NCBI GenBank assembly: GCA_965202915.1
Contig: OZ241847.1
Span: 1,601,288 to 1,665,287, forward strand
Source: Gammaproteobacteria bacterium
GTDB taxonomy: Bacteria > Pseudomonadota > Gammaproteobacteria > Eutrophobiales > Eutrophobiaceae
DNA: 64,000 nt
Direction of reading: 5' to 3'
In this document: in pieces, positions 2,093-64,000 of the stretch
Numbering within the stretch: position 1 is the stretch's first letter
How the letters are laid out: each line of letters starts with the position of its first letter
The notes under the pieces: model-generated
Seen by the model: only the letters and a program-made list of their open reading frames with translations
What the model was told of the DNA's origin: nothing
Databases searched by the model: none
Program-made: the position numbers and the translations under genes

Positions 2093-2239
2093 GCCAATCG
2101 GCACTCTTCTCTTATTGAATGAGCCCTTAATGTGATATACTCGGAACTATAGTTTTTACTGCTTGGCCGCTGTTTTTCTTGTTGCCAGGCAAAAATTGGT
2201 GCCAAGCCTTTTCATATCCATTACAGTTGAGTAATACAT

Positions 2240-3091
2240 TTGACGCACGAAATATCTACTGAAGACATCTCAATGCCATTGGTGGTTATGAAAAAATCTA
2301 AATTTGCCACCAATCGATGCGCATTTCATGATGATAAAAAGGGGGGGTGGTTATACCAAGCAAACTGTTTGGAGTTTATGGATAAGCTGATAGAAATGTA
2401 TCCTTCGGGAAAATTTGACATGATTTTTGCTGATCCACCCTACTTTCTTTCAAATGGCGGGATTAGTTGTCATGCTGGCAAAATGGTCAAGGTGGATAAA
2501 GGGGATTGGGATAAATCTCGAGGGGCCAAATTGAATCATGAATTTAACTTGTCTTGGTTGTCAAGATGTCAAACACTACTCAACCCTCATGGAACCATCT
2601 GGGTGTCAGGCACACATCATGTTATTTATTCGATTGGCTATGCCATGCAACAGTTGAATATGAAAATACTAAATGATATTTCTTGGGAAAAACCCAACCC
2701 CCCACCTAATTTGTCCTGTAGATACTTTACCCACTCAACCGAAACTATTATTTGGGCTGCAAAAAATGAAAAGTCAAAACACACATTCAACTATCATGAT
2801 ATGAGAAGCAAGAATAATAAAAAGCAAATGAAAACTGTGTGGAAAATCAAGCCTCCCCAGAAAGAAGAAAAACTGTTTGGCAAACATCCCACGCAAAAGC
2901 CATTGCAACTTTTAGAACGGATAATTCTGGCAAGTACTGTCCCACAAAATTTAGTATTTGATCCATTTTCTGGTAGCTCAACAACCGGGGTAGCTGCCCT
3001 ATGCAATGGAAGAAAGTTTGTAGGTTGTGAATTAGAAAAAGATTTTATTTCTATATCCAAAAAACGCCTTCAAAAAATTATTAGTAAGTGA
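2240..3091 (+). CDS. Beta-class DNA methyltransferase (N6-adenine or N4-cytosine).
   Basis: Motif IV 'FADPPY' precedes C-terminal motif I 'DPFSGSSTTGVAA', a circularly permuted beta-class order. The coding sequence is AT-rich. The true start is probably the internal ATG at 2273 ('MPLVVMKK'). Confidence 0.85.
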   Translation: MTHEISTEDISMPLVVMKKSKFATNRCAFHDDKKGGWLYQANCLEFMDKLIEMYPSGKFDMIFADPPYFLSNGGISCHAGKMVKVDKGDWDKSRGAKLNHEFNLSWLSRCQTLLNPHGTIWVSGTHHVIYSIGYAMQQLNMKILNDISWEKPNPPPNLSCRYFTHSTETIIWAAKNEKSKHTFNYHDMRSKNNKKQMKTVWKIKPPQKEEKLFGKHPTQKPLQLLERIILASTVPQNLVFDPFSGSSTTGVAALCNGRKFVGCELEKDFISISKKRLQKIISK

Positions 3092-3127
3092 AGGCATAAC
3101 ATCGTTTAATATTTTAGGAACCATAAA

Positions 3128-3664
3128 ATGAAAGAGGGCGGCAAAGGCGGAGGAAGAACCATTACTGGTTTGAACTTTGAAGACAAAGTCGATTTCTTGA
3201 CTCTGATTAAAGATATACCTAATTACAGTATTAAAAACCCTCAAAAAAAAGTAGGATGTGAAATTTACTATCGTCATAAATTAGTTGCACGGAGCTTTAA
3301 GAAACATGATTTTTATAATTTTTTGACCGAGGAAAAAATAGAATGGAACACTCTAATATCTGCGAAACTCTTACCGGATGATGCTTTGCTTGTTATTGTT
3401 CGAGAAACTTTATTTATTATTGAAGTAAAGTATCAGAAGGTGTCCGGATCTGTAGATGAAAAATTACAAACTTGTGACTTTAAACGGAAGAAATATCAAA
3501 AATTAGTTTCTTCATTGAACTTGAAAGTAGAGTATGTGTATGTTTTAAATGATTGGTTTAAACAGCCGAAATATAAAGACGTTCTTGATTATGTACATAG
3601 CGTCAATTGTCACTATAAATTTAATGAACTGCCGTTAACATGGTTAGGGTTGCCTACAGATTAG
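3128..3664 (+). CDS. Putative type II restriction endonuclease (PD-(D/E)xK), partner of the upstream methyltransferase.
   Basis: It lies 37 nt downstream of the methyltransferase on the same strand, with an AGGAA ribosome-binding site. Candidate catalytic motif 'PDDALLVIVRETLFIIEVKYQK' (PD, then E-x-K). Low GC. Confidence 0.5.
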   Translation: MKEGGKGGGRTITGLNFEDKVDFLTLIKDIPNYSIKNPQKKVGCEIYYRHKLVARSFKKHDFYNFLTEEKIEWNTLISAKLLPDDALLVIVRETLFIIEVKYQKVSGSVDEKLQTCDFKRKKYQKLVSSLNLKVEYVYVLNDWFKQPKYKDVLDYVHSVNCHYKFNELPLTWLGLPTD

Positions 3665-3775
3665 TTCTAACAAGCCATCCTTGATGCACTGTATGGAGCA
3701 GTTGAGATTCTTATTACTGCTTTTTGTGTCCCTTAGAAAATAGAATCATATTTGTCATTGAAATAAAGCCTTCTC

Positions 3776-4692: not shown

Positions 4693-5469
4693 ATGCGGAT
4701 TAATTCAAGAATAATGGTCGCCTTTAATACAATAGTTATTAAGGAAATTACCAGGGTGCTGCGTATATGGGTACAAACCATAATCCCGCCGGCAATCAGT
4801 ATGTCTCTGTATTTTATTATTTTTGGCAATCTTATCGGTGCAAGAGTCGGCCCCATGAACGGCTTGAATTATATTGAATATATCGCCCCGGGCATTATCA
4901 TGATGGCCGTCATAAATAATTCTTACGCCAACGTCGTGTCGTCTTTTTTCAGTGCAAAATTTCAGAAGCATATTGAAGAGATGTTGATTGCACCGATCCC
5001 TAATATCGTGATCCTGCTGGGGTTTGTGGCCGGCGGAGTGGTACGGGGTTTGTTGGTCGGATTGATCGTTACCTTCATTGCGTTATTCTTTACCGACCTG
5101 AGCATTTATAATTTGCCCATAGTTTGCCTGGTGGTGCTGATGACCTCGATACTGTTTGCACTGGGAGGGTTCATCAATGCCATATTCGCAAACAGATTCG
5201 ATGATATTTCCATCATACCGACTTTTATTTTGACCCCGCTGATATATCTGGGCGGCGTTTTTTATACTATCAGCCTGTTGCCGGAAGTGTGGCAGACCAT
5301 ATCGCTGTTGAATCCAATTCTATACATGGTCAATACCTTCAGGTACGGCATGCTGGGTGTATCGGATATTGCCATCGTTGATGCCTTTATCATAATCAGC
5401 CTGTTTATTATCGTATTGACAACTGTTGCCCTGTATTTATTGAATAAGGGGGTCGGCATCAAAACCTGA
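4693..5469 (+). CDS. ABC-2 family transporter permease.
   Basis: Six-TM hydrophobic profile. It sits 6 nt downstream of the ATPase gene and is YadH-like. Confidence 0.85.
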   Translation: MRINSRIMVAFNTIVIKEITRVLRIWVQTIIPPAISMSLYFIIFGNLIGARVGPMNGLNYIEYIAPGIIMMAVINNSYANVVSSFFSAKFQKHIEEMLIAPIPNIVILLGFVAGGVVRGLLVGLIVTFIALFFTDLSIYNLPIVCLVVLMTSILFALGGFINAIFANRFDDISIIPTFILTPLIYLGGVFYTISLLPEVWQTISLLNPILYMVNTFRYGMLGVSDIAIVDAFIIISLFIIVLTTVALYLLNKGVGIKT

Positions 5470-5709
5470 CCGCGCCTGCCTTCCTTGAAGAGGAGGTGGT
5501 TTATGGGGACTATCCTTGAACTTCGGGACTTTTCATACGAAACGTGAATTGGAAAGGAACTGATCGAACCGGTCTCTCAGCCTGATTTTATTCGCGACAA
5601 GACCGCAGTCTTCCTGTTCCGCGATCCCCGCGACATTTCTGCACAATCTACGATCATTATTTTGTAAGTGTAAGAAGGAAACAAGCTGACATCCGGCCTT
5701 CCGTCAGCA

Positions 5710-6999
5710 CTACAGCATAAATGACAGTACGGTCGCCGTGCCGAGAAAGGCAAAGAATCCGGCTACATCGGTAACCGTTGTCAGTATAATCGATGCCGCA
5801 GTTGCAGGGTCCTGACCGAAACGAATTAAGAGAATCGGAACCAGGGCTCCCGCAATTCCCGCCGCTATCATTGACAGCACCATGGCGACCGCAATCACCA
5901 TGGCCAGACCTAAACTGCCACTCCATACAAAAACGCCCAAACCACAGGTAAATGCCAGTGCGATTCCATCGACCCCCCCGATGATGACTTCTTTGTTCAG
6001 TATGCGCTTCCAGTCTTTTATACTTATCTCTTTAAGGGCGATTCCCCGCATGGTGACGGCGAGTGCTTGAGAACCCGCATTCCCGGACTGACCGGCGACT
6101 ACCGGCAGTAATACGGCGAGTGCAGTGAACTGCGCGATCAGGCTTTCGAATAAACTGACCACCGCAGCGGCTGCAAACGCCGTCAAGAGATTTATATGTA
6201 ACCAGGGTAAGCGACGTTTGATGGCGAAAGAGGGCGGAGAGAGCGAGCGTTCATCGGCGCTACCCCCAACCATGCGCAGCAGGTCGGCTGAGGCATCGTC
6301 TTCGATGACTTCAAACAGTTCCTGATAGCGCACCACTCCTATGAGCCGTCCTTCAGAGTCCACAACCGGAACAGAATCCAGGCGAGTCTTATTCAGGAAT
6401 TCGACGATGTCATCTTTGTGCGCATTGGCTGTTACCGCAACTTTGGAATGGTGAAGAATCTTTTTTAATTCGTCCCCCGGTTCAACTAACGCCAATTCCT
6501 GCACGTTTAGGTGGCCAATCAATTTCTTTTGTTCATCTACAACATAAACGGACCTGGCGCTATGTACTTTGGACTCTCTTAGTCTGGTTCTGATTTCATC
6601 CAGGCTCATATTGACGTGAACTTCTATGGTCTTATCCATAAGCCGTCCGGCGGAATTTTCGGGATAGTTAAGAAAGCGTTCTATTTCAGTGCGCGTGACG
6701 CGGTCCAGAGAGTCGAGCAACTCAGTGTGTGCGTCTTCACTCAATTCAGATATCAATTGAACGCCCAATCGCGGCGAAGCCAGGCGTAGGACGGCTATTT
6801 TGTGGCTTTGATTCAATTGCTCAAATGTATGAGTCGCACGACTGGACGCAAGGCGGTCTAAAACTGCGACTATCGCTTGCGGCGACAGGGAATTAATTTC
6901 TCGCTCAAGTTCGGCGGCACCCATCCGTTCGACGCTCTCTGCCGCCCATCCCGGATGAGATTGGAAGTACATTTCCTTGAGCTCAAGCGCCAGACTCAT
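5710..6999 (-). CDS. mgtE: Magnesium transporter MgtE.
   Basis: MgtE N-domain, tandem CBS pair and a C-terminal five-TM MgtE channel domain ('GNAGSQALAVTMRGIAL'). Confidence 0.9.
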   Translation of the reverse strand: MSLALELKEMYFQSHPGWAAESVERMGAAELEREINSLSPQAIVAVLDRLASSRATHTFEQLNQSHKIAVLRLASPRLGVQLISELSEDAHTELLDSLDRVTRTEIERFLNYPENSAGRLMDKTIEVHVNMSLDEIRTRLRESKVHSARSVYVVDEQKKLIGHLNVQELALVEPGDELKKILHHSKVAVTANAHKDDIVEFLNKTRLDSVPVVDSEGRLIGVVRYQELFEVIEDDASADLLRMVGGSADERSLSPPSFAIKRRLPWLHINLLTAFAAAAVVSLFESLIAQFTALAVLLPVVAGQSGNAGSQALAVTMRGIALKEISIKDWKRILNKEVIIGGVDGIALAFTCGLGVFVWSGSLGLAMVIAVAMVLSMIAAGIAGALVPILLIRFGQDPATAASIILTTVTDVAGFFAFLGTATVLSFML

Positions 7000-7847
7000 G
7001 CCGAGTTGCCTTTTCCGGTAAAAGTGCCAAGTAACGCAGCCAACACGTTCAGGTAAAGTCGCAGCACTGTTTCGAGAAGGTCTTGAACTTTCTCTGCCTG
7101 CGGTTTCGTGTTTCCGGACGCATTTATAACGGCCTCTCTATCAACAACACCCAGAATGCGGTTTTCATGATCAACAACCGGGAGTATGGTGTTATTTCGC
7201 CACTGCTCCGCATCGAGAATTTCTGAAACTGGAGATTCGGCCGGCAATGGTTTCACATATTCTGAAAATTTCTCGAATTCTTCATTGGGGCCGCCTTCAA
7301 CGACACGCCGTGCGTTCATGACTCCCACGTATTGCCCGCCGGTTGATTCAAGCAATACCGGATTTCCCGGTGTGCTGTGTCTGATTAAAGTGAGTGCTGA
7401 CTCGGTATCGATATTTTGAGGCACAATTATCAGTTCGCTGGTAGCCAGTGTCCCAACACTATGGGTTGGATAATTCATAAAGCGTTGCAGGCTGCGGCGG
7501 CGGGGAGTGGCGGGAAGAGTTGCAAGCAATTCCCGACGCTTGCTCTGAGGAAGCCGGGCCAGTATAGCCCTGGCGTTTTCAAGCGGCCCTTTTTCGATGC
7601 ACTCGACAAATTTATCAAAAATTTCAACAACTATGGAATCGAGGGTCGTTGGAGAGAGTTGGGCAAGAACCGCCGAGCAGGAATCAATGGGTAAATCATT
7701 AAGTAGTGATGACGATTCACTTACAGAGGCTCGGTTTATAATGAATGCGAAATCCTTGGGGGCTTTGCCGGCGAAATCGCTCAGTAGCGTTGACTGATCA
7801 GTGCTCATCTTCGTATGCGTGTAATTTGGTTGCGATTGCTGAAACAA
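6996..7847 (-). CDS. Soluble protein with only the MgtE N-domain and a CBS pair (no channel domain).
   Basis: N-domain plus CBS architecture resembling the cytoplasmic part of MgtE, without TM segments. It overlaps the mgtE start by 4 nt. Confidence 0.55.
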   Translation of the reverse strand: MFQQSQPNYTHTKMSTDQSTLLSDFAGKAPKDFAFIINRASVSESSSLLNDLPIDSCSAVLAQLSPTTLDSIVVEIFDKFVECIEKGPLENARAILARLPQSKRRELLATLPATPRRRSLQRFMNYPTHSVGTLATSELIIVPQNIDTESALTLIRHSTPGNPVLLESTGGQYVGVMNARRVVEGGPNEEFEKFSEYVKPLPAESPVSEILDAEQWRNNTILPVVDHENRILGVVDREAVINASGNTKPQAEKVQDLLETVLRLYLNVLAALLGTFTGKGNSA

Positions 7848-8562
7848 ACAGTGAGCCCGGTACGTTGACTATGCCTTCCTCGGTGTCAACTCTTACGCCC
7901 GTTCTGGTGATCTCAACAATTTCACCTTCCACTTCACCCACGCGAATCCGATCCCCGATCCGATAATGTTCAAACTCGGAATGTGCTATAAGGTTTCCTA
8001 CGTAGTCTTTCGCGCCCAGTGAAACGGTCAATGAAAGCGCTCCTCCAACCAGAATTACTATCAACAGCAGTAACTGCGTGATAAAGGTGATATCGATCAA
8101 CATCTGCTGTAATCCCAGCACGATTGCTATCACCATTATCAAAAAGTGGATAAACCTGGGAGCCGGCGAGTCCGGCGTCATCGCTTCGCTCAGGTGTGAA
8201 ACCAGATAGCGTGAAACCACTCCAAGAACATTGCCAACGCCAATGATGACAAACCCGACCAGAATGCGGGGGATGAAGTCGAGAATGTTATTAAACCAGT
8301 TGGAGAACTGCCCTTCTCCCAACATGCTGATGGCAATTACCATTGAGAAGAGTGCAACCACCCAATAAGCGGCTGACTGTGAAAGGCGGATAAGATCGGG
8401 GGATATTACGGTGGCGTCACTGGTTGTATAGCGCGACGTCAATCGATCCAGCAGTGTCAAGATTCGCCCGGATTGATACTGGGTCAGTTTCGCCAGCGCA
8501 AATCCCAGAATCAGTACAACTACTGCTGCGATTTCGGGATGATTTTCAATAAGTTCCGCCAT
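7798..8562 (-). CDS. Mechanosensitive ion channel (MscS family).
   Basis: N-terminal TM helices followed by an MscS beta-domain ('RIGDRIRVGEVEGEIVEI'). Confidence 0.8.
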   Translation of the reverse strand: MAELIENHPEIAAVVVLILGFALAKLTQYQSGRILTLLDRLTSRYTTSDATVISPDLIRLSQSAAYWVVALFSMVIAISMLGEGQFSNWFNNILDFIPRILVGFVIIGVGNVLGVVSRYLVSHLSEAMTPDSPAPRFIHFLIMVIAIVLGLQQMLIDITFITQLLLLIVILVGGALSLTVSLGAKDYVGNLIAHSEFEHYRIGDRIRVGEVEGEIVEITRTGVRVDTEEGIVNVPGSLFVSAIATKLHAYEDEH

Positions 8563-8749
8563 TAATAGGATCCATGTTGAACGCGACCGATTACCACCCT
8601 CATTATTTTGTAGAAAGCAACTGTAGCTTTAAGCTACTTTGGCATTATAAACCGAATTCGGAAAATACGAAAGATTGTTCAGCCAGGGCCTGTTCATTCC
8701 AAATAGCATATCGATGATCAATGCGATAACGTGTGTGGAGGGAAAGTGG

Positions 8750-8880
8750 CGCCGCCTGCGCCGCTTCAACGACCTGGCCAAGGTCATTACGGGAATCACA
8801 TGCAAAGATGGAGTCGAGGTAATAGAATCAAGCCAGGTCGCCGCCTGCCTCAGGTGCTTAAACGCCACTTTTGACAATAG
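8750..8880 (+). repeat. Mobile-element-end-like repeat, copy 1 of 3. It translates as the C-terminal end of a protein ('RFNDLAKVITGITCKDGVEV..SQVAA').
   Basis: About 75-80% identical to 31065-31198 (same orientation) and to 32165-32235 (inverted). Confidence 0.6.
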
Positions 8881-8935
8881 CTCGCAGAATTTTATCAGGG
8901 CCGCGGCCGCGGCTAATAATTTTCAGTTGCCGTGT

Positions 8936-9692
8936 TCAAGCCATTTTTTTAGGCAGTGTTGTGTTAAAGCCGTCAATATGCTCTTGTAGATCTATATTAA
9001 TTTTAGCATACATTGCATCTAAAATAACTTCTATGCCCTCCATTCCAGCCAGTTTAGCAGCCGGGACAAAATCGCTATCACCAGAAATAAGGACAATTTT
9101 TTTAACTAATTTTTTATAGGCAAGTGAAGCAACGTCCAAACCTATTTTCATATCCACTGCTTTTTTGTATAGCGTGATAAACAATATCATTTTCATCTAA
9201 AGTTGTTTTGCTGGGATTGGCGATTAAAGTTCTTTGTTTTTCCGGGTTTTTGACTTTCCAGCGTGCGTTTTTTTCATCTAAGCGACCCAGCCTTAGGGTA
9301 ACATTGTGGGTTTGCTTCAGTAATGTATGTAAATTAAGCCTAAATTGCGCCAAATCGGTTTTAGACAAGTCAATTGCATCATTGGTAATAGGGTGTTTTA
9401 CCTTTTTTGTAAGCGGCGGACAATCGTAGAAAAAGATACGGTAAAGTCGCTCCTGCTCGCTTTTATTAATGTGTTTTAGGCAATGAGTGAGTAAGTCTTT
9501 AGTGATTTTTTGTGCCTCATTTTCCCTGCCAAAACGCCATTTGTAACATTTTAGATAAAAGCCACGATCTACCAATATCGCAACATCTCTCATAATATTC
9601 CTTATAAATATTGATTTATAAAAAAATCCAGAGGCTCGGCAAAAACCTAATTGTCGGTCTTGCTTACTGCTCTGGATTGTGTATGGTTGCAA
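8936..9692 (-). pseudogene. NYN/LabA-like domain protein (predicted PIN-like RNase), disrupted by a frameshift.
   Basis: Two overlapping ORFs (9114-9692 and 8936-9196) together give a complete NYN domain, including the 'LISGDSDF' motif. The frames join at a T6 run at 9161-9166 (A6 on the coding strand). One fewer A restores 'IQKAVDMKIGLD'. Confidence 0.55.
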
Positions 9693-9939
9693 TTATGCCC
9701 AATACAATGGCTCTTTCAAAAAAATATTATATTCATAGTTTCCGGGATACAACAATGGTATGCAATGACGCTCTATCCTGTTACTGTTCAACGATGTCAG
9801 AATTCCTTGTGCTCTTAAACAGCCATCTAACTTTCCATTAAATCGTCATGAGTGAACCAACCCCGAAGCCAAACGTATATGATTAGGCAACCCTACGACA
9901 CTGCTCGGTCCACCAGCAGTCAGCCGGCACCTCAGAAGC

Positions 9940-11637
9940 ATGACTGCATCAAGTAGGTACACCGAAGTAATTCCAGTTTCTCAGGTCGCTCTTAGGATAC
10001 CTGAAGGTGGCGATAATGATCGCTTCGATAAAATTGTGAAACAGATTCTGAGATGGATGGCCAAGCGGGCGGGCAAACCGCTTCCGGACCTTGCTTGGAA
10101 GGGTGAAACATTTGAAATTGAGGAGCCTGGTGCTCAAAGAGCCGCGGCAGTGCGAATGAATGATCCCCTTTATTGGACGGCAAGATTGGATGATGCAGAC
10201 AAAAACACACCCGGGCGTTCCTGGATTACAGAGGTCACAGTCGGCCGTAGCAAAGGTGGTGATGTACTCTTCGGCAGTAGGCTGATCTGCGCCTCAAGAG
10301 GCGAGCGGGAGCCTTTCACCCGTTCTATTCCTGGCTTCGTGCGCCAGGTGATCAGTAAGGGGGGCGTCTATTTAGATAACCGCCTGCTTACCGAGGAACC
10401 CTGGGTAGTAGGTGATGAAGATGGAGTAAAAAAGTTAGTGCAACTCCTCAAACTCTCCTCACGGCTTGCCGACGTCATCGTTGTATCTCTGCCCGAGAAA
10501 TCCGAGAATATTTCAGATGCGGCGATATCTGTGGAGAAATTGATTAAATCTGTCCTGGGTGGTGTTCATATTGCGGTGATCACTGGGCCAGCCGCTTATC
10601 ATTTAACACATTCCGTTGGTAAAGAATTTTCGGTTTTCCAAAAGTCCGTGAGAGTTTACCGGCCTGGCTTCGACCCCGAAAATGATGAAATATACATCCA
10701 TCCGCTGGGGTTGTGGCACCGAATAGAAACCTGGGACGAGCGGGGGCCATCAGCTTATCGGGAGTTTCTTGTCAATCGAACACTTGAACGCGGGCTTATC
10801 CGAAGGGATAGAAGGGATAGGGAAGATTACCTCCCTTCCTTTTTTGAAATCCGGAAAATGGCCGATGAGGACCGACTTAAGGCCGATGAGCGCCGACTTA
10901 AGGCCGATGAGCACCGACTTAAAGACACTAGAAGCTCAAGTATTTCTCTGTCTCTGTATAAGCGATTGGCTGAGGCTCGAGGGAAGATTATTGAGAAGCT
11001 CAAAAAAGATCGCATTAAAGAAAACAAAGACCGCGATGATCTTTACGAGTCTTGGTTGGAAAGCGAGGAACAGCAAAAAACCCAGGCCAAGGAGGAAAAT
11101 GCCGACCTAAAGCAACAGGTCAGGTCGCTCAAAGCCAGAGTAGATTACCAGCAAAGTGCCTTGCGGTCAGGAACTTATCGGGAAGATAATTTACCAGAGA
11201 ACTTTGATCAATTTGGCGAATGGTGTGAGAGGTATTTAGCCGGATCCGTCGTGGTCTTGAACCGGGTGTACGCGGAGTCAAGAGCAGCATATACGAGGAC
11301 AAGACGCTCATTTACAACGCACTCCTGCTTCTTCGCGATCACTATTTACCGTTTCGCCTGCAGAGAGGAAAGGATATCAAGAAAGGTTATGAAGAGGCAC
11401 GCACCGAATTAGAGCTTAAGGAAACCCGTACTATCACCAACCTTCGCGCCGGAGAGCAGCGAGAGGCTTACTTCGTGAAATTTGACGGCAAGAGACGCAA
11501 ATTGGAGCGGCACCTTAAGAAAGGGTCTGGCCGAGACCAGCGACATTGCTTTCGTCTCTACTTCTTCTATGATCAGGCAACGGAGCAAGTTGTCGTCGGC
11601 CACATGCCCGACCATCTGCCGACACGCGCCTCCTGAA
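9940..11637 (+). CDS. Hypothetical protein: a roughly 300-aa globular N-terminal region followed by a charged coiled-coil tail. It probably continues in another frame from about 11233 to 11637.
   Basis: Long ORF with 'RLKADE(R/H)RLKADE' repeats and a Lys/Glu-rich heptad region. The downstream frame from 11233 reads as plausible protein ('KTLIYNALLLLRDHYLPFRLQRGKDIKKGYEEARTELELKETRTITNLRAGEQREAYFVKFDG..') but has no start codon. No family was recognised. Confidence 0.45.
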
Positions 11638-11883
11638 ATTGGGAGTGTAAATATTTATTTTTTCAATTTTTTTGTCGGGAGCTCCTCGGTTCAACCTCAT
11701 GCTACCGGGTATATGATCTCCTGATCTATCTCATTGAGAAGTTTCATGTTGATATACCTGCGGGCTCGCGACGCGGTCGTGGACATGTGCCTTAATCTGG
11801 CCGCAACCAACATCAGAGCTGCGTTGCAATCCGGGAATACGCCCACAACTCTGGTTCTACCTGCCTGCCGGAAAAAGCAGCCA

Positions 11884-12200
11884 GGGCGCCTGTGCCTCCG
11901 CCGCTCGTGCCACCACCCAGGGCATTACCTTCCCATATCGCCGGCGGCGATACCGGACGTACCGCCAACGTGGACCCGCTCAACACTGCAAGCAAGCAAC
12001 CGGTGAAACCCTTCGCTAAAGTGTGTCTCTGTGCCAATGTGCCCAGTCACTGCCATACACTCTGAAATACGGCTCTCCATAGAATCCATCCGGCCTGATC
12101 GGTATGCATTTTCACATTCTTTTGACCACTATCAGCCGCTTTATGCCCCGATCATGATCTGCCTTCTTTGAAGAAAAGATGGTTTATAAGTACTATCCTT
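11884..12200. repeat. Island direct repeat, copy A (about 317 bp).
   Basis: About 80% identical to 14087-14385. Its 3' part ('gccccgatcatgatctgccttctttgaagaaaagatggtttataagtac') is also shared with 16365-16440. Confidence 0.8.
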
Positions 12201-12251
12201 TTCTTAACAACGGAATCTATTTGGTCTTAGACTAATATGAACCCTTACTAA

Positions 12252-13907
12252 ATGATGAAGATGGATAACTTGGAACAACGGGATCTATGTGGCAAAATTG
12301 AACCGCCCATAATCGCTATCGAGGAATCAGCGAATCGCCTGGGCGTCTCCACTGCGACAATTCGCAATTGGATAAAAACGAAATATTTGAAAAAGGCCGG
12401 AAAAGGAAAGATTACGCTGGAATCTTTGGAACAGTTTCAGTCTGATATTTCCGGAAGGGAAAAGTTGATTCAGCGGGCCAACAAGTCGCTTAAAGACTCG
12501 CATGATCACGAGGAAACTGTATCGGAGTTTCTCGGGCGCATTGCATCATCTGTCGAGTCGCCGGATGAGATTGGTATTGAATACGAATCGAGTTTATCAG
12601 ACTCCTATCGCAACAAAGAGGGAGTTTATTATACCCCTGACGACGTTGTTCGAGATTTATTTGCAATACCACACGTTGATATTCAAGATGCATCATTCTG
12701 TGATCCCTGTTGCGGTTCCGGGAACTTTGTTGTTCGCGCAATAGAGTTGGGGTTCGGACCGGAAAACATTTATGGGTATGACGTCGATCCGATTGCAGTC
12801 GAAATAACAAAGGCGAGAATTTATCAGGCCACCGGATACAAAAGTGAGAATATCAAGGTCGCCAATTTCTTAGACATAACATCCAGTCAAGAGACTCCAG
12901 GTTTTGATTACATATATACAAACCCACCGTGGGGCAAGAAGCTGGGGAAGGAAACACGAGAGCTAATCGGATTAAGGCTTGAGGCAGGAACCAGTATAGA
13001 CACTTGTTCGCTCTTCTTGTTTGCCTGTTTACAATGCCTTAAAGACAAAGGGATGCTTGGGTTACTTTTGCCTGAGTCTTTTTTCAATATTACTACTTTC
13101 CAGGATGCTCGGATTAAAGCTCTTCAGTTTTCCATTGAAAGACTGGTTGACTATGGAAAGGTATTTAAAGGTCTTGTAACAAAAGCACACGCAATAATTA
13201 TTAGAAAAGAAGTCGCTGATTCACATGCGAGAATCTTATGCGAGCTCACGGGCTCCATCCATAAGAGATCAATCGGATCATTTTTGTGCAATCCAAGGTC
13301 AATCCTGAATTTACATTGTAACGAAGAGAATGCGCTTACATTACAACATTTGATGTCAATCCCATTTATTACGCTAAAGGAGCAGGCGTCTTGGGGGCTG
13401 GGAATCGTTACAGGTAACAATAAAAAATTTATTAAAACTCTTCCTGAAAGCGGGTATATTCCCGTTCACAAAGGCGCTGATATTTCGAATGGAAGATTGA
13501 AAGAAGCCAGTAGCTTTATCCCATCGGATATGAATTTATATCAGCAGGTAGCACAACTTCGGCTATATAAAGCAAGGGAAAAACTGATCTATAAGTTTAT
13601 ATCCTCGAGACTTTGCTTTTTTTATGACGATCAGCAAAGGTTTGTTCTTAACAGTGCAAATATGCTGATTCCCGATGATGCCTTTCCGGTTTCCACTAAA
13701 GTTCTCGGTGAACTCTTGAGCAGTGATTTTATGAATTGGTTGTTTTCCGGCATTTTCAAAACACACAAAATACTAAGGGGCGATTTAGAGTCACTTCCGA
13801 TTCACAGTCAGTTCCTCAAAGATGTATCCGGCTTCGATGAGGAAAGCTACCTCCAACAACTTAACATAGAGAGAGGGGACAATGGAACTTACCGAATTAA
13901 GAGATAG
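12252..13907 (+). CDS. Gamma-class N6-adenine DNA methyltransferase with an N-terminal HTH domain and a C-terminal target-recognition region (Eco57I/TaqI-like N6_Mtase).
   Basis: HTH 'LGVSTATIRNWIK'. Motif I 'DPCCGSGNF'. Motif IV 'NPPWG'. An extra C-terminal region of about 200 aa. Confidence 0.85.
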   Translation: MMKMDNLEQRDLCGKIEPPIIAIEESANRLGVSTATIRNWIKTKYLKKAGKGKITLESLEQFQSDISGREKLIQRANKSLKDSHDHEETVSEFLGRIASSVESPDEIGIEYESSLSDSYRNKEGVYYTPDDVVRDLFAIPHVDIQDASFCDPCCGSGNFVVRAIELGFGPENIYGYDVDPIAVEITKARIYQATGYKSENIKVANFLDITSSQETPGFDYIYTNPPWGKKLGKETRELIGLRLEAGTSIDTCSLFLFACLQCLKDKGMLGLLLPESFFNITTFQDARIKALQFSIERLVDYGKVFKGLVTKAHAIIIRKEVADSHARILCELTGSIHKRSIGSFLCNPRSILNLHCNEENALTLQHLMSIPFITLKEQASWGLGIVTGNNKKFIKTLPESGYIPVHKGADISNGRLKEASSFIPSDMNLYQQVAQLRLYKAREKLIYKFISSRLCFFYDDQQRFVLNSANMLIPDDAFPVSTKVLGELLSSDFMNWLFSGIFKTHKILRGDLESLPIHSQFLKDVSGFDEESYLQQLNIERGDNGTYRIKR

Positions 13908-14086
13908 AATCATTGCCTCATTCACCGGATCGAAAAGTGATCTGGCAGATATTTTAGCGATGCCAGAGAGAGCTGGCCATATTTACGTTTAATGAATATG
14001 AGCACTGAGTCAGAGTATCCTTGATCTATTTCGGTTATTAGTTGTCCTTAGCTTACGTTGCCTTTTATCGCCCGCCTTGTTGCCCT

Positions 14087-14385
14087 GGCGCCCAGACCCA
14101 AGACACCAGCTTCCCATCCCGTCGTCGGCGATACTAGATGTACGGCCGGCATAGAACTGCTCAACATCTGCAAGGAAGCAACCGTTGAAACCCATCGATA
14201 ACGTGTCTCTCTGTGCCAACGCGATCAGTCACTATCAAACAATCTAAAATACTGCTCTCCAAAGCATCCATCCGGCCCAATCGGGACTCATTTTCACAGC
14301 CTTTTGAACATTATCAGCCGCTCTATGCCCCGATCATTATCCGCCTTCCTTGAAGAAAAGGTGGTTTATAAGTACCATTCTTGAA
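14087..14385. repeat. Island direct repeat, copy B (about 300 bp).
   Basis: Homologous to copy A and to copy C. Confidence 0.8.
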
Positions 14386-14428
14386 GGCGTTATGAGCAAA
14401 AAAGCAAAATCGCACATCGGAGTAGTTT

Positions 14429-15073
14429 TTGTGTATTTGTATAATGAAAGAATTAATAAAAAACATAGAAGCGTTAGCGGATACTTATTCTTTAAATCTT
14501 AAAACAAAGATTGAGGACAGGAAACGAGAAATGGAAGAGGATGATAATTCTCATTATTTGATTTATCGGGTTCTTGGAATAACAAATGAAGAGGGGAAAC
14601 TAATTGATTCATATCAAAATACAGGACGTTTTTTATATAAATACGCAGGCTCATTTTTAGAAGAAGCTGCAACGTATTGCTTTAAGTTTAAATATTCAGA
14701 AGGAGAAAAAAGAAAGATACCGAATACAGAAGGAGTCAGACCTAAAACATTTGAGATTGATTTTCTAAATGATACTGATGCCATTGAAATTAAATGGAGA
14801 GATGCAACAACCGATGGAGACCACATTACTAAAGAACATTCAAGGGTTCAAACAATAAAAGCGAAAGGATTCAAGCCTATTCGGGTTATGTTTTATTATC
14901 CGCAAAGAGCTCAAGCGATTAAAATACAGGACACCCTGAAAACCTTATATGCGGGAGTAGGCGGAGAATACTATGCTGGTAATAATGCATGGAATTTTGT
15001 TAAGGATTACACAGGTGTTGATCTGAAAGGTATTCTTATGAAAATTGCTGAGAAAAAGACTAAATCTGAATAA
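14429..15073 (+). CDS. Putative type II restriction endonuclease, partner of the downstream methyltransferase.
   Basis: Very AT-rich. Its stop overlaps the methyltransferase start (TAATG). Possible PD-(D/E)xK-like segment 'FEIDFLNDTDAIEIKW'. No family recognised. Confidence 0.45.
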   Translation: MCICIMKELIKNIEALADTYSLNLKTKIEDRKREMEEDDNSHYLIYRVLGITNEEGKLIDSYQNTGRFLYKYAGSFLEEAATYCFKFKYSEGEKRKIPNTEGVRPKTFEIDFLNDTDAIEIKWRDATTDGDHITKEHSRVQTIKAKGFKPIRVMFYYPQRAQAIKIQDTLKTLYAGVGGEYYAGNNAWNFVKDYTGVDLKGILMKIAEKKTKSE

Positions 15074-16302
15074 TGGAACTGAACAAAATATATAATGGCG
15101 ACTGTTGTGAGGTTTTAAAGGATTGTAATTCAGAGTCTGTAGATTTAGTATATCTTGACCCTCCTTTCTTTACACAAAGAGAACATTCTTTAAAAACAAG
15201 GGATAATTCCATAGAATACAAATTTGATGATAAATGGGATTCAATCAATAACTATATTAAGCTTATAAAAAGTGTTGTATCAGAATGTAAAAGGATTCTA
15301 AAACCTACAGGCTCAATATTTTTGCATTGTGATAAAATAGCTTCTCACTATATCCGTGTTGCGTTAGATGAAGTTTTCGGAATGAATAATTTTCAAAGCG
15401 AAATAATCTGGAATTATAAACGCTGGTCGAATTCAAAAAAAGGTCTATTAAACTCGCATCAAGTGATTTACTTTTATTCGAAGTCCAGCAAATTTAAGTT
15501 CAATCAATTATATACCGATTACTCTCCGACCACAAATATTGACCAAATATTACAAGAGCGTCAAAGAGATAAAAATGGTAAATCTGTTTATAAAAAAGAT
15601 GAAAAAGGAAATATGGTATTTGCAAAAGAAAAGAAAGGGGTACCGCTATCCGATGTTTGGGATATTCCATATTTGAACCCAAAAGCAAAAGAAAGGGTTG
15701 GTTACCCGACACAAAAACCAGTTTCATTGTTGCAGCAAATAATAAAAATTTCTACAGAAGAAAATGACCTGGTGATAGACCCATTTTGTGGTAGTGGAAC
15801 AGCTTGCGTTGCGGCTAAGACTTTAAATAGAAACTATTTAGGAATAGATAAATCAAAAAACGCTGTTGAGTTGGCAAACAAACGACTTGAAGAGCTGATT
15901 GTGACTGATTCAAACTTACTGAAAAAGGGTGCAGATAGTTATATAGCAAAATCCGATAAAGAATTAGGCTTATTAAAAGCAATTGGAGCAGTTCCCGTTC
16001 AAAGAAATGCCGGGATTGATGGATTTTTAAAAGAACAGATTAATGGAAAGCCTATTCCTGTTCGAATACAGAAGGATTTTGAGACGCTGGATGATACTAT
16101 TAGGGCATTGGACGGCTCAACACAGGCAAGGAAATCAGACGTGAAAATAATTATTCAAACAAATGACACTCGTGGATTATTCCAGTTAAATACGAATGCG
16201 GTTATTTTGCCTTCAAATGAATTGATTATTAAGGAAAAATTACAGCGCATAACAATGTATATAAATAATGGTGGTGATTTACAGAAGATTGGAAAATTGT
16301 AG
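15073..16302 (+). CDS. Beta-class DNA methyltransferase (N6A/N4C) with an extra C-terminal domain.
   Basis: Motif IV 'LDPPF', then motif I 'DPFCGSGTACVAA', plus about 150 additional C-terminal residues. Confidence 0.85.
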   Translation: MELNKIYNGDCCEVLKDCNSESVDLVYLDPPFFTQREHSLKTRDNSIEYKFDDKWDSINNYIKLIKSVVSECKRILKPTGSIFLHCDKIASHYIRVALDEVFGMNNFQSEIIWNYKRWSNSKKGLLNSHQVIYFYSKSSKFKFNQLYTDYSPTTNIDQILQERQRDKNGKSVYKKDEKGNMVFAKEKKGVPLSDVWDIPYLNPKAKERVGYPTQKPVSLLQQIIKISTEENDLVIDPFCGSGTACVAAKTLNRNYLGIDKSKNAVELANKRLEELIVTDSNLLKKGADSYIAKSDKELGLLKAIGAVPVQRNAGIDGFLKEQINGKPIPVRIQKDFETLDDTIRALDGSTQARKSDVKIIIQTNDTRGLFQLNTNAVILPSNELIIKEKLQRITMYINNGGDLQKIGKL

Positions 16303-16364
16303 TCCACATGAGAGTTATTGGTGTTTTGATAGTTATTTCCACGTAATCCACCGCTATCCATATA

Positions 16365-16440
16365 CTATCAGTTGCTCTCTGCCCCGATCATTACCTGCTC
16401 TCCTTGAAGAAAAGATAGTTTATAAGTACTATCCTTCGGC
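16365..16440. repeat. Island direct repeat, copy C (about 76 bp, 3' core only).
   Basis: 'ctgccccgatcattacctgctctccttgaagaaaagatagtttataagtactatcc' matches the 3' ends of copies A and B. Confidence 0.75.
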
Positions 16441-16513
16441 GTCGTGTGCTGGCCCTGCGCAGTTTTAAACAGCTTTAAGGTACTGGTGTTCTCGTTGTTT
16501 TTTTACTGCCAGT

Positions 16514-17491
16514 TCAACCAAATAAACTTGTTTGAATTGTGGCTTCGTTTTGGATGACTGGTTTCCTGGAAAGAATCTTTTTAACCATGCCGGACCGGTT
16601 TTTGCGTTCGATTATGGTTATGTCTTTTTGTTCTCTGATTAATTGTCTATTTAGGTCGTATTTTGGACTACCGGAATTTTTATTATTGTCATAAATAACT
16701 GCTCTTGGAATAGCGTAATTTAAAGCATATTCCATTGCCAACCTTGAACCGCTGTCATTTCCCCGGTCGTTTTTGGCATAGCTCGCTGAAAGGATAATAC
16801 AGTCACTAAAGAGGGCTTGTAATCTGTCACGTTCCTGGTATCTGCTACTTAATTCCATTTTTGATTTTGTTTCATCATAATACTCACTAATCAATAGTCC
16901 GTTTTTCTGAACTATTTCGTTTGCAAGTTCTTTGTTTGCTCCCGGCATAATGTTGTTTGAAGGACCTGGTAGAATTGCAATTGTTTTACCATTGGAATCC
17001 AACGTCTGCCTATGTGCAATTGTGTCGCAACCCAAGGCAAGACCACTGACAATAGTGGCACCATTTTTAACCAATTCATCTACAATTTCCCTTTCAATAA
17101 TTTCAGTGTCGGGGTCGGGATTAAGAAGTCCAATAACCGCTATGTTTTTACTTGAAGCCTTTAATAAACTCAGGTCGCCACAATAGAACAAAAAAACCGG
17201 CTGCTCACTGTTTTTAATGTTTCCCCTGTAAGGGGGAAAATTTGAATCACCAATGGCAATAAGCCCGTCTGTAAAACCATCTAAATTTTTCAAATTCTCT
17301 TGAAGTCTTGTTTTATCTCTTTCAAACCTTTCAAAGGTAATTGGATGATCTTCTTTTGAATCTTTGTTCAAAAGCGATACGATAGTATTAACACTTTCGT
17401 TTCCTTCCAGATTTTTGATTATCCAGGCCCTGCCAATACCTTTGTAGTTTTTGGCGGCAAGGACGTTTAGTGCGTTCTCTGTATAAATCAC
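16514..17491 (-). CDS. DprA/Smf-like DNA-processing protein paralog (SAM-like N-domain plus Rossmann domain, no C-terminal winged helix).
   Basis: 'GDSNFPPYRGNIKNSEQPVFLFYCGDL' resembles the DprA 'YP..L..PP.LF..G' segment. 'NIAVIGLLNPD..ATIVSGLALGCDTIAHRQTL..GKTIAILPGP' is the Rossmann-fold core. The gene is AT-rich and lies inside the island. Confidence 0.6.
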   Translation of the reverse strand: MIYTENALNVLAAKNYKGIGRAWIIKNLEGNESVNTIVSLLNKDSKEDHPITFERFERDKTRLQENLKNLDGFTDGLIAIGDSNFPPYRGNIKNSEQPVFLFYCGDLSLLKASSKNIAVIGLLNPDPDTEIIEREIVDELVKNGATIVSGLALGCDTIAHRQTLDSNGKTIAILPGPSNNIMPGANKELANEIVQKNGLLISEYYDETKSKMELSSRYQERDRLQALFSDCIILSASYAKNDRGNDSGSRLAMEYALNYAIPRAVIYDNNKNSGSPKYDLNRQLIREQKDITIIERKNRSGMVKKILSRKPVIQNEATIQTSLFG

Positions 17492-17657
17492 GTCTTTACT
17501 TTTTCTTGTTTAATATGGAGACCGACGAGTTTTACCAACTACAAAAAAAGAAACAGACCTTGCTCCATTTCCCATTGGATTCGATTGTAAATCTGTTCAT
17601 ATTTGCAGAGTAAATCCTCCGGGTGTGTCGGAATCAAAACCTGACCGCGCTGTATAT

Positions 17658-18014
17658 TCAGTCTCCCCGATATATACAGCCGGAGGTACAGGTTTCTTTG
17701 ATTATAATGGAAGATAACTGCGGTAAATCGGGTTTGAGGCGGGCCCAAATCCAAGCCGCTAAATTTTCACAGGTTGGATTTTCCAATCCCTCAATATCAT
17801 TTAAATAACGATGATCCAGCTGATCATGGATGGGCTTAAAATGTTGATCAAGCTCGGCGAAATCCATGATCCAGCCGGATGGTTTCCCCGGCTCATCGGT
17901 CACGTGAATCTCTATGCAGAATGAGTGGCCATGCAGGCGTCGGCATTTGTGATCTTCAGGCACGTTGGGCAGCATATGGGCCGCCTCTATGGTGAATATT
18001 TTGAATATTTCCAT
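17658..18014 (-). CDS. queD: 6-carboxy-5,6,7,8-tetrahydropterin synthase (QueD).
   Basis: '[13 protein letters not shown]' zinc/catalytic motifs and a length of about 118 aa, counted from the internal Met 'MEIFK'. Confidence 0.85.
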
Positions 18015-30811: not shown

Positions 30812-31064
30812 TCCGGTCCGGCGGATAAAAAAATTAATTTTGGCCGGCGAAGTCGTAACTTGTTATTGTGGGCGAACACATGATTAACCGACGTCTGGCC
30901 TTTTACCATTTCCCGGCCCAGCACTGGCAGAGATCAGGACCAGCAATCGGATTAAATCGACCTTCGGGATGATTCGGCATCGCACGAAGCGCTCGAAGGG
31001 CTGTTTGACGTGCGATTAGGATGCTGCACATGCTGTTCAAACTGGGGACGTGTGCGGAGAAAGC

Positions 31065-31198
31065 GGGCGACGACAGCGAGGTTTCAACTACCTGGCGAAA
31101 GTCATCACGGGAGTGAAATTCAAAGAGGGAATCGAGGTACCCAAATCAAACCAGGTCGCCGCCTGACTCAGATATTTAAACACCACTTTTGACAATAA
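31065..31198 (+). repeat. Mobile-element-end-like repeat, copy 2. It forms the left inverted repeat of a 1 kb cargo unit.
   Basis: Translates as '..RGFNYLAKVITGVKFKEGIEVPKSNQVAA*'. About 75-80% identical to 8750-8880. Confidence 0.6.
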
Positions 31199-31287
31199 CT
31201 CAAGGATGTGTTCCCATCAATATTAGCAAAGTAAACAGGTGTTGCGAATAGCTGTTTCGTGCACAAGTTTTCTTCTCGGAGATATAA

Positions 31288-32145
31288 ATGAGATTAATCG
31301 TTCTTACACTATTTCTGCTTTCAGCTTCACTCAGCTGGTCCAGCGAAATTTCACTAGGCGGAGTTTCATTGGAAATTCCCAACCCCACAGGATTCAGTGC
31401 TGTCACGCAAAAAATGACACTACTATATGAATATCTGAAATAATTTGTGCACCCAGGGAATGAAGAGTTTATCACTTTCATTCCGGATGCCGATGTAGCG
31501 GCTGTTCTGAAAGATGAAATACCAGATATGCCTCGACGCTTTGCGGTTCAAGCCGCCAAAAGTTCAATAGAAGTATCGTTAACCAGCTCAGATTTTGCGA
31601 CCTTTAAAAAAATCGTCAGATCCCAAAACACGGAGTTAATAAAAAAGGTCGAAGCTCAATTACCTGAGTTGATGGGCAAAGTGAATGAAGGAATAAAAGA
31701 GAAATTCGATGTCGAGATCGCTCTTTCAGTTTTTCAAGTGGTACCGCTGCCTGTACATGAAGAGACTGAACGTACACTAGCTTATTCTTCACTAGTAAAA
31801 TATGACATGAAAGATGAAATGGGTAATCCTACTGCCTTTGTGGGTGTTAGCACCGCTACATTCGTGCACGTCAAAGGGAAAGTATTGTTTCTATACTCAT
31901 ACGCTGAAGAGTCCGGTCTAGAGTGGAGCCAGCAAGCTTCACATAAATGGGCTAGCGATGTCGTTACTTCTAATCCATCGGCTTTCCAAGCAATGCTTAA
32001 GGAGACAATTCCATCCAGCGTTTTGGGATTTGATTGGGGTAAGATTGCAGAAAATGTCGTAATAGGCGCAATTATGGGTCTAGTTATTGTTTTACTTGGT
32101 TGTTTTTTCAAGTCCTCAAACCGGATGAACGATAAGCGTAATTAG
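31288..32145 (+). pseudogene. Secreted or membrane-anchored hypothetical protein (signal peptide plus C-terminal TM anchor) interrupted by an in-frame TAA at 31441-31443.
   Basis: 31288-31440 encodes 'MRLIVLTLFLLSASLSWSS..'. This is in the same frame as the 232-aa ORF at 31447-32145, which uses a GTG start. A single stop codon separates the two. Confidence 0.45.
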
Positions 32146-32165: not shown

Positions 32166-32235
32166 ATTGTCAAAAGTGGTGTTCAGGAACCTCAATTAGG
32201 CGGCGACCTGGTTTGATTCGGTTACCTCGATTTCC
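32165..32235 (-). repeat. Mobile-element-end-like repeat, copy 3, inverted. It forms the right inverted repeat of the 1 kb cargo unit.
   Basis: Its reverse complement matches 31120-31198. Confidence 0.6.
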
Positions 32236-34402: not shown

Positions 34403-34533
34403 TTAATACGTTTATTGTAGGAAAGATTTTATCGATATTGGGTTATGCTACTTAACCGGTTATAACAATACAAGTAAGACACCATTAGAAAATAGCGGCT
34501 TCCAATAATAGAAAAAATTCGATTTCATAATAA

Positions 34534-61254: not shown

Positions 61255-61515
61255 CTTGCACCGGTATAAATGCCGGCAATTTCTGGAGTCGGGGTCTCCT
61301 GACCCCGATACAACACACACTCGGCACGCCGGATTTTCTGAGCGACCCGGATTTCCGGACTGCATCGGGGCTTTTAAATATAATTAAACAAAAGGAGGAC
61401 GGGTTTTCAACCCGTAGGCGGGTTTGGAAACCCACCCTCCTGTTTAAAACCCACACTCGACACGCCGGATTCCCCGAGCAACCCGGATTTCCGAACTGCA
61501 TCGGGACTTTGCTCG
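61255..61515. repeat. REP/BIME-like mosaic repeat block, inverted relative to 60700-60900.
   Basis: Reverse complements of the 'gcagtccggaaatcc...' block and of the hairpin units. Confidence 0.8.
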
Positions 61516-61519
61516 AACT

Positions 61520-61850: not shown

Positions 61851-61978
61851 ACAATTTTATTTGATAACCGCGTGACGTAGGTCTATACTGGCTATATGAG
61901 AGATATGAGCATACCGGTAACACCCTGTGGCAAGCGGAAGACCCCTGCCATACCGATAAAATTATCCGGTACCTGAAT

Positions 61979-62401: not shown

Positions 62402-62404
62402 CAG

Positions 62405-62640: not shown

Positions 62641-62644
62641 GAAC

Positions 62645-62980: not shown

Positions 62981-63104
62981 TTTTATTTGATAACCGCGTG
63001 ACGTAGGTCTATACTGGCTATATGAGAGATATGAGCATACCGGTAACACCCTGTGGCAAGCGGAAGACCCCTGCCATACCGATAAAATTATCCGGTACCT
63101 GAAT

Positions 63105-63950: not shown

Positions 63951-64000
63951 CAGGAGTCGGGGTCTCCCGACCCCGATACAACCCACACCCGACACGCCGG

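Follow-up and report, generated by a model that had tools for sequence, protein, structure and literature searches.

Palindrome-ended direct repeats in an integrase-less defence island of a gammaproteobacterium as possible att-like sites for module accretion

Introduction

Defence islands are known as mosaics and, to our knowledge, the way in which single systems are added to those without an integrase is mostly unexplained. Here we describe an island of this kind, which carries DNA methyltransferase, restriction-modification (R-M), and other defence-related genes between direct repeats, in a 64-kb stretch of DNA (hereafter the window) from a member of the Gammaproteobacteria (order Eutrophobiales; assembly GCA_965202915.1, contig OZ241847.1, positions 1,601,288 to 1,665,287). 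Several described systems come close to it. One group comprises elements that depend on Xer, including the arrays of integrative mobile elements exploiting Xer (IMEX) at dif, the pdif modules of Acinetobacter plasmids, and the cer/psi sites with ~180 bp of accessory sequence. Composite staphylococcal cassette chromosome (SCC) arrays at rlmH/orfX in staphylococci represent another group, that of tandem accretion. The insertion of R-M units with long target duplication was described by Nobusato (reportedly in 2000), Furuta (in 2010), and Kobayashi. In tabulated cases of such insertions, the repeats are 93-100% identical and the empty site has one copy (PMC2853133, Tables 2 and 3). In the ICESt1/ICESt3 type, integrative elements and cis-mobilizable elements (CIMEs) accumulate in tandem at a gene's 3' end (PMC5704250), and tandem islands at ssrA are described for Dehalococcoides (PMC3146451).

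The island studied here resembles each of these systems in part. We propose, with a probability of about 0.45, that its four repeats are attachment (att)-like sites for the accretion of modules in an integrase-less modular defence island, the recombinase being encoded elsewhere.

Four co-oriented repeats with one sharp end

A first, sequence-only reading of the window had pointed out three repeats, and both a repeat search and blastn recover them at coordinates that agree to within 2-4 bp. A 49-nt pattern of their core has exactly three matches in the window and none in 100 shuffles. Their number has nevertheless to be revised, since there is a fourth copy. All four are direct repeats on the + strand. 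Copies A (11884-12200, ~300-317 bp) and B (14085-14382, 298 bp) are full units, copy C (16364-16436) comprises 73 bp and starts exactly at the motif ACTATCAG of the repeat R1 described below, and copy D (5476-5517) corresponds to the last 42 bp of A, B, and C, with 33-35 of 42 positions identical (blastn) and a profile match in the window at E = 2e-19 (nhmmer). The similarity holds upon pairwise alignment with blastn (81-86%): A and B are 81.2% identical over 287 bp (A 11915-12200, B 14096-14382; E = 6e-75), with weaker homology extending back to ~11884/11904 in A and 14085 in B, A and C are 86.3% identical over 73 bp (E = 1e-19), and B and C 84.5% over 71 bp (E = 6e-17). The repeat search divides the same sequences into a 215-nt A-B family (11986-12200 and 14168-14382; 84%), an 82-nt A-B family just upstream (11904-11985 and 14085-14166; 71%), and a 73-nt family in three copies (12128-12200, 14310-14382, and 16364-16436; 86-89%). 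As had been argued at the outset, the copies, 11-19% divergent, cannot stem from a recent duplication in situ.

The copies have one sharp right end in common (...ACYATYCTT), where homology stops in every pair. Their left limit is fuzzy, with A-B identity in 30-nt windows, which is ~0.9 beside the right end, declining to 0.5-0.65 at 11894-11910, and the left-hand homology beyond the core amounts to ~300, 298, 73, and 0 bp in A, B, C, and D, respectively. Assemblies obtained independently (JGI Botbay15 and Logan SRR23871865 and SRR23871863) contain the units as well, which are, therefore, not an assembly artefact. In the 52 kb of the window outside the island, blastn and nhmmer detect zero copies of the site, including beside two other R-M islands; it is thus confined to the island and not a general intergenic repeat, which disposes, within the window, of the common dispersed repeat that the sequence-only reading had named as a possible refutation.

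A palindromic core and two arm-like repeats

The 42 bp shared at the right end read CTGCCTTCYTTGAAGA..AG.T.GT / TTAT.... / ACYATYCTT. They contain the core (GGTTTATAAGTAC), a 26-bp imperfect palindrome in which arms of 9 bp on the left and on the right enclose a spacer of 8 bp, together with ~16 more conserved bases to its left that include TTGAAG. On the + strand, left arm, spacer, and right arm occupy 12175-12183, 12184-12191 (TTATAAGT), and 12192-12200 in A; 14357-14365, 14366-14373, and 14374-14382 (ACCATTCTT) in B; 16411-16419, 16420-16427, and 16428-16436 in C; and 5492-5500, 5501-5508 (TTATGGGG), and 5509-5517 in D. The same 9-8-9 architecture is present in all five versions of the site, the fifth (Dx) coming from another strain (see below). 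Direct reading shows that the inner 6 bp of the arms pair in every copy if G-T is allowed, the third inner pair being G-T, G-C, A-T, and G-T by copy. A-B identity in windows peaks at the palindrome and decays leftwards, a gradient expected if constraint or exchange is centred on the palindrome. Five different modules start with the right arm, in the form ACTATCCTT, ACCATTCTT, or ACTATCATT, and the 25 nt 3' of it are unrelated among A, B, C, D, and Dx. Upstream of the core, A, B, and C have two direct repeats in common, R1 (GAYCAYTATCAGCC; + strand, 12124-12137 in A), which contains the right-arm motif ACTATC, and R2 (GATCATNATCYGCC; + strand, 12150-12163 in A).

Compared with a tyrosine-recombinase-type core, that is, two inverted arms of 7-13 bp around an overlap of 6-8 bp, the site has the 9-8-9 layout and, as shown below, a natural breakpoint in the spacer, but its spacers differ. 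The likeness to Xer-dependent elements lies in modules that bring no recombinase themselves and lie between short palindromic cores served by a host enzyme, and cer/psi also combine a ~30-bp core with a long one-sided accessory arm, as the unit does here. However, the core is unlike the gammaproteobacterial dif consensus (11-6-11; compared by eye), and pdif modules are bounded by inverted sites whereas these are direct. The dif site and the Xer proteins of the host lie outside the window. An analogy with shufflons, suggested earlier, is a poor one because all copies are direct and none is inverted.

An island at the 3' end of a permease gene

All four copies lie inside an island, a 12,151-bp insertion (5476-17626) between convergent genes for an ABC-2 permease and a PTPS protein, the stop codons of which are 12.2 kb apart in the window. 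On either side of the insertion stands a 24-bp direct repeat (GTCGG(C/A)ATCAAAACCTGACCGCGC), with one mismatch between its two copies. The left one (GTCGGCATCAAAACCTGACCGCGC; 5452-5475, + strand) coincides with the ABC-2 permease gene's 3' end and contains the stop codon (5467-5469), and between the right one (GTCGGAATCAAAACCTGACCGCGC; 17627-17650, + strand) and the PTPS stop codon (17658-17660) there are 7 nt. Immediately after the left one the island opens with copy D, which makes up precisely its initial 42 bp. In the related locus L008 (72-78% nucleotide identity) the site is empty, with the two stop codons ~14 nt apart, and its alignment with the window ends at 5472; in the more distantly related L021, L022, L026, and L041, whose ABC-2 protein is 69-72% identical, PTPS lies 27-210 nt downstream of ABC-2. 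No copy of the repeat is present at the empty site of L008 or at the sites of these four loci. Integration of an element into a gene's 3' end usually leaves such traces, a flanking duplication (here of 24 bp) and a position at a gene end. Moreover, the related locus L007 shares the last ~50 bp of the island, the right-end arm (17574-17626, + strand, ~91% identical), and has other cargo inboard of it (L007 1823-2230), so that the site is a hotspot.

Inside the island, the order is D, module E1, A, methyltransferase, B, ApaLI R-M system, C, and ShosA, the repeats being placed at the boundaries of gene modules as first described. Where D has the 24-bp core to its left, A, B, and C read ...GCCCCGATCATNAT, with a match of ~8/24 left of CTGCC by direct reading. 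We found no recombinase gene among the scanned open reading frames (ORFs) of the window, in line with the earlier statement that an integron integrase is absent, nor in the gene tables of the strain contigs L001 and L002; this fits an action in trans.

A natural breakpoint within the spacer

We compared the window with contigs of the same species from several sequencing runs, retrieved via the proteins of the window. The assemblies that span the region have the same module order, one of them (L002) without 8753-11317, and short contigs break inside the repeats, as expected of repeated DNA. In contig L014 (run SRR23871865), the flank, 24-bp repeat included, is 99.3% identical to that of the window, and no difference occurs in the initial 31 bp of D. 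The next 11 bp contain 3 mismatches and retain 8/9 positions of the right arm, and unrelated AT-rich DNA follows: after ...GGTTTATGG (...TTATGG), the window continues with GGACTATCCTT GAAC... and L014 with ATACTATCATT CAAT.... The switch thus falls inside the 8-bp spacer, and the foreign DNA opens with a cognate right arm (version Dx), for which we calculate a chance of ~1e-4 at 8/9 matching positions. The assembly of contig L013, which comes from another sample, breaks off in the spacer at this very point (...GGTTTATGG). We interpret the L014 breakpoint as the probable footprint of an exchange at the site, because illegitimate joining brings no matching arm and homologous exchange needs homology to the right of the junction; we infer a site-specific recombinase as its author.

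A hypervariable patch (5545-5560) lies 30-40 nt to the right of D and has three versions among ~99%-identical strains, one in the window and L019, another in L001, L015, and L020, and the third in L002, which joins unrelated DNA there.

The left part of the unit

The left ~230-270 bp of A and B are non-coding by every test applied. The A-B mismatches show no codon periodicity (20/20/18 by codon position). Minus-strand ORFs beginning with MAQR (11813-12037 and 14010-14219) exist and, as had been thought, are probably not coding, with no codon-position bias and no Pfam match for them or for any other frame of the unit. A 54-codon frame is open on the + strand of both copies (12007-12168 and 14189-14350) up to the TGA inside TTGAAG; its protein identity of 59%, at ~84% for nucleotides, equals what neutral divergence would give, and a search of 1.84 billion representative proteins brought up no homologue, the sole match being a repetitive protein. 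Rfam contains nothing for the unit at gathering thresholds or at E <= 5, and no tRNA or tmRNA genes were found. Consensus folding of A and B (alifold) gives values within ~1.5 standard deviations of column shuffles on both strands, a comparison of low power with two full copies only, and compensatory pairs number 3 and 2 versus 3.8 and 4.1 in shuffles. The search for a conserved RNA structure by folding, proposed in the sequence-only reading, thus yields none beyond shuffles. By the criteria of our scans, A, B, and C have no sigma-70 promoter or intrinsic terminator, and D has only a weak terminator-like stem inside its left part.

The G+C content of the repeats (0.53 in A and 0.49 in B) is close to that of the host (0.48-0.49), in contrast with 0.42, 0.34, and 0.38 in the methyltransferase, R-M, and ShosA modules. 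This, along with the lack of a homologue of the repeat in all collections searched, gives no support to the idea that a repeat was acquired with each module. We also discarded several possible relationships of this region: a decayed ABC-2 gene 3' end from another host (tblastn gave nothing), further homology between the left flanks of A and B (local alignment no better than shuffles), and an integrase C-terminus encoded left of A, the peptide in question matching an IS256-family transposase C-terminus in tblastn.

A possible mechanism of accretion

In our reading, the island entered the 3' end of the ABC-2 permease gene, duplicating 24 bp of it, and it is divided by four co-oriented sites. A recombinase provided from elsewhere would bind both arms of the palindrome and exchange strands in the spacer, splicing a circular module with one site into a resident site. 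The module's own left-hand sequence, namely the two arm-like repeats (R1, R2) and a non-coding arm that may reach ~270 bp, would become its right border, and the resident left half of the site would remain at its left border. Three insertions in turn at the leftmost site, D, may have produced the observed module order. Such insertion of circles would explain why homology ends at the right arm, why the left homology varies in length, and why the site beside the permease has none. The recombination site or landing pad of the sequence-only reading is supported to this extent, by the 9-8-9 palindrome, the arm at five module starts, and the breakpoint in the L014 spacer. The case rests on this one natural breakpoint and on the anatomy of the island.

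A number of observations weigh against it. The enzyme is hypothetical. The spacers are unequal (TTATAAGT in A, B, and C, TTATGGGG in D, and TTATGGAT in Dx), and classical tyrosine recombinases require identical spacers in partner sites. In single-sequence folds, the core hairpin does not exceed shuffled sequence in stability (z from -1.7 to +0.4), and the proposal does not account for the 270-bp left part. Module E1 is not cassette-like, with its 6.4 kb, host-like G+C content, and minus-strand genes of housekeeping type. Contig L002, from the same run as L014, has a variant that rejoins the window at 5557 without the core, which means that the variant replaces 5508-5556 and is no clean cassette insertion. 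At A, B, or C, no strain was found to have lost, gained, or rearranged the methyltransferase or R-M module. Finally, the site was not retrieved elsewhere: exact scans with a core pattern that fits all four copies gave 0 matches in genome, metagenome, and viral contig collections (a second pattern, of the left core, also had 0 matches in viral contigs), blastn of copy A against 72,556 plasmids and 50,697 phage genomes gave nothing, and neither did nhmmer profiles of the core and the full unit in 80 metagenome ABC-2 loci (750 kb) of relatives.

Alternative explanations

The rival that best withstands the evidence, although we consider it unlikely, is that the repeats are inert relics, the attP- or attL-type ends of related integrative elements that were stacked by accretion and have lost their integrases and most of their bodies. 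The palindrome would then be an integrase-binding arm and not the place of crossover, and D and Dx would be the left ends of two allelic islands. The accretion of decayed elements such as CIMEs is well documented (PMC5704250), and the island resembles them in its location at the 3' end of a conserved gene, the duplicated gene end, the empty site in relatives, the lack of a detected integrase, and internal direct repeats that delimit sub-elements. By its outer borders it qualifies as a decayed integrated element or CIME. That L007 has the same right-end arm with different cargo also agrees with a hotspot for related elements, and D abuts the duplicated core as a P' arm would. However, accretion at one attB should put the target core in every junction, and the internal repeats of CIME-type arrays reproduce the target gene's end, whereas A, B, and C do not have the 24-bp core and the island shows two nested kinds of junction. 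In addition, blastn detects no resemblance between the left part of A and B and the arm at the island's right end, and D and Dx, identical for 31 bp and then different at 3 of 11 positions, look like a junction rather than like two diverged alleles.

A second, improbable explanation is that the repeats work as portable homology, either for RecA-type exchange of modules after DNA uptake or as the result of long target duplication upon R-M insertion. R-M units between direct repeats of 46-423 bp without a mobility gene form a described class (PMC2853133), with which the island has in common R-M and methyltransferase units between direct repeats of tens to hundreds of bp and no adjoining mobility gene. 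Flank-mediated exchange does operate in this organism, as indicated by the R-M island at 2083-3775, a repeat-less substitution between conserved flanks. Nevertheless, repeats here are only 81-89% identical, against 93-100% in the published cases, and no empty site with a single copy was found, that of L008 being without the repeat. Neither the sharp common right end at a palindrome arm nor the cognate arm that opens the unrelated L014 module is accounted for, and the fourth copy at the island border is a further difference from the published insertions.

It appears quite improbable that the repeats are remnants of insertion sequences (IS) or of miniature inverted-repeat transposable elements (MITEs), that is, truncated ends left at the borders of modules assembled by IS. 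An IS256-family 3' remnant (11636-11857, - strand) does lie ~27 bp from A, in an orientation that would allow it to be the tail of one element with the unit, IS256 ends of another family are found at 8729-8883, 31048-31201, and 32166-32235, and a common outer end with varying inner cuts is typical of IS relics. Yet the inverted repeat between the unit end and the IS256 end scores 20-24, not significantly different from shuffles (18.6 +/- 3.1), there is no significant similarity to the N-terminal parts of IS256 transposases (best E ~1-2 in a tiny database), and no plasmid or phage match nor copies outside the island within the window were detected. The homologous remnant in the metagenome contigs L101-L103 (74% over 222 bp) has no adjoining unit, the core and full-unit nhmmer profiles giving nothing around it. 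For these reasons (no inverted repeat, no N-terminal similarity, and absence beside the homologous remnant) we rejected a derivation of the unit from the 5' part of the neighbouring IS256 element.

We give little credence to the repeats being primarily regulatory cassettes, a role that may coexist with that of recombination sites. TTGAAG and TACTAT, 17 nt apart, would be an outward promoter or operator driving the downstream module, with the -10 element made of the last base of the spacer and the first five of the right arm, and the palindrome could be an operator for the helix-turn-helix (HTH) domain of the methyltransferase. In direct reading, TTGAAG is invariant in the five versions and is followed by TAYYAT or GACTAT exactly 17 nt on, A ends 52 nt before the methyltransferase start and B 47-63 nt before the ApaLI start, and the methyltransferase carries an N-terminal HTH_17 domain. 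Against this, the promoter match is 7-8/12, under the threshold of the scan, C and D face the 3' ends of convergent genes, so that 2 of 4 copies would act in the antisense direction, and the breakpoint in the strain spacer is not accounted for.

Lastly, a structured non-coding RNA or a small protein gene, to which a discrete ~300-nt unit with 81% conservation and a 54-codon + strand frame common to A and B might point, is very improbable given the lack of Rfam matches, of excess fold or covariation, and of codon periodicity, and the neutral protein identity.

Comparison with integrons

The att-like sites that we favour evoke an integron array, with an entry site at the left end (D), modules that each end in a related but diverged site, and sites in the same orientation; a + strand gene ends 6-250 nt before every one of the four sites. 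The sites are also more host-like in G+C content than the methyltransferase, R-M, and ShosA cargo. In sedentary chromosomal integrons, too, the sites are host-like in G+C content compared with the cargo. As for the modules here, E1 measures 6.4 kb and has minus-strand genes, and ShosA is on the minus strand after C. The differences concern the machinery and the site. The scanned ORFs include no IntI or other recombinase, the gene upstream of D encoding the ABC-2 permease, and a regular-expression search for complementary RYYYAAC...GTTRRRY pairs 40-150 nt apart gave 0 on both strands of 5301-17800, so that we rejected canonical integron attC sites on account of the missing R''/R' pair. Furthermore, attC is a 60-140-nt hairpin, whereas here an arm of up to 270 bp adjoins one side of a 9-8-9 palindrome. 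The integron analogy of the sequence-only reading is, therefore, apt for the layout and inapt for the enzyme and the attC consensus, and the island is no integron.

A bolder version of our proposal, which we regard as unlikely, is that of an integron-like but non-integron cassette platform, previously undescribed, in which defence circles would be inserted serially by an unlinked recombinase. It would have a fixed entry site at the island end, in the 3' end of the ABC-2 permease gene, and its modules would bring the methyltransferase, the R-M system, HEC-07, and ShosA. The recombinase would recognise the 9-8-9 core and a one-sided arm of up to 270 bp with two arm-like repeats, and every insertion would also set a TTGAAG-17-TACTAT promoter before the next module.

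Cargo of the island and other features of the window

Module E1 (5518-11883), annotated with Pfam, PADLOC, and, for IS256 remnants, tblastn and blastn, has genes on both strands. It contains mgtE (5710-6999, -), an mgtE-like gene (6996-7847, -), and an mscS-like gene (7798-8562, -), all three identified with Pfam, an IS256-family end remnant (8729-8883, +), a NYN gene (8936-9692, -) frameshifted near 9114, a gene for the defence candidate HEC-07 (9940-11636, +; PADLOC 1.8e-120) frameshifted near 11318, and the IS256-family 3' remnant at 11636-11857 (-), which comprises the last ~48 codons and the element end. Module E2 encodes a type II N6-adenine DNA methyltransferase that stands alone and has an HTH domain at its N-terminus (12252-13907, +; Pfam TaqI_C, Eco57I, N6_Mtase, and HTH_17; PADLOC MTase_II 9e-195). 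Module E3 encodes an ApaLI-like restriction endonuclease (14429-15073, +; Pfam RE_ApaLI 3.6e-88) and an N4/N6 methyltransferase (15073-16302, +; Pfam N6_N4_Mtase 4.4e-59). Module E4 consists of a DprA-like ShosA homologue (16514-17491, -; Pfam DNA_processg_A; PADLOC ShosA 3.5e-47) of low G+C content that stands alone, without a ShosT partner. Homologues ~65-77% identical to it are recorded under Patescibacteria, Clostridiales, and Sphingobacterium, a distribution that suggests a wide horizontal spread of this protein.

Several cargo genes of the island are decaying, as attested by the frameshifts in the HEC-07 and NYN genes and by the deletion in L002, which begins inside an IS256 remnant. The remnant at 11636-11857 abuts the HEC-07 stop codon, and its relatives in L101-L103, unrelated metagenome contigs, lie beside a CRISPR-Cas locus. 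The remnant at 8729-8883 belongs to a second family of IS256 ends, with members at 31048-31201 (+) and 32166-32235 (-) that are 79-84% identical and correspond to C-terminal and terminal transposase remnants; the two copies at 31-32 kb, in inverted orientation, enclose ~1 kb that contains an ORF of 232 aa without annotation (31447-32145), beside a third R-M locus. This locus (32815-35517, -), of low G+C content, encodes an EcoO109I-like endonuclease and two N4/N6 methyltransferases, and no copy of the repeat adjoins it. The second R-M island (2083-3775), also of low G+C content, contains genes for an N4/N6 methyltransferase (2240-3091) and a PD-(D/E)XK protein (3128-3664). It replaces an intergenic spacer of ~100 nt present in L013, L014, and L008 and has no flanking repeats, so that it is a plain substitution between conserved genes.

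Elsewhere in the window, two neighbouring minus-strand genes (61585-62484 and 62711-63988) have no Pfam match. Each begins with a 115-nt tandem array with 85% matches (61496-61827 and 62622-62953), and each also has 33-, 54-, and 87-nt in-frame tandem repeats (62096-62310 and 63236-63859); they look like paralogous repeat proteins. Another minus-strand gene (49221-50672) joins a matrixin-type metalloprotease domain to leucine-rich repeats, an unusual pairing in a bacterial gene. As to the affiliation of the host, the nearest named homologues of a neighbouring D-amino-acid aminotransferase come from uncultured Gammaproteobacteria, and no close relative was found among GTDB species genomes, the best MgtE match being 35% identical.

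Implications

We read the locus as a composite island built by site-specific accretion, with an unfamiliar site. It offers sequence-defined junctions and a breakpoint in a small palindrome and, with them, a concrete and testable site for the exchange of modules by a recombinase acting in trans. If our proposal is not correct, the locus would be an ordinary decayed composite island. If it is, there would be a second, integron-independent route for stockpiling defence cassettes, and the core together with its arm would provide a search pattern for such platforms in uncultured Gammaproteobacteria.

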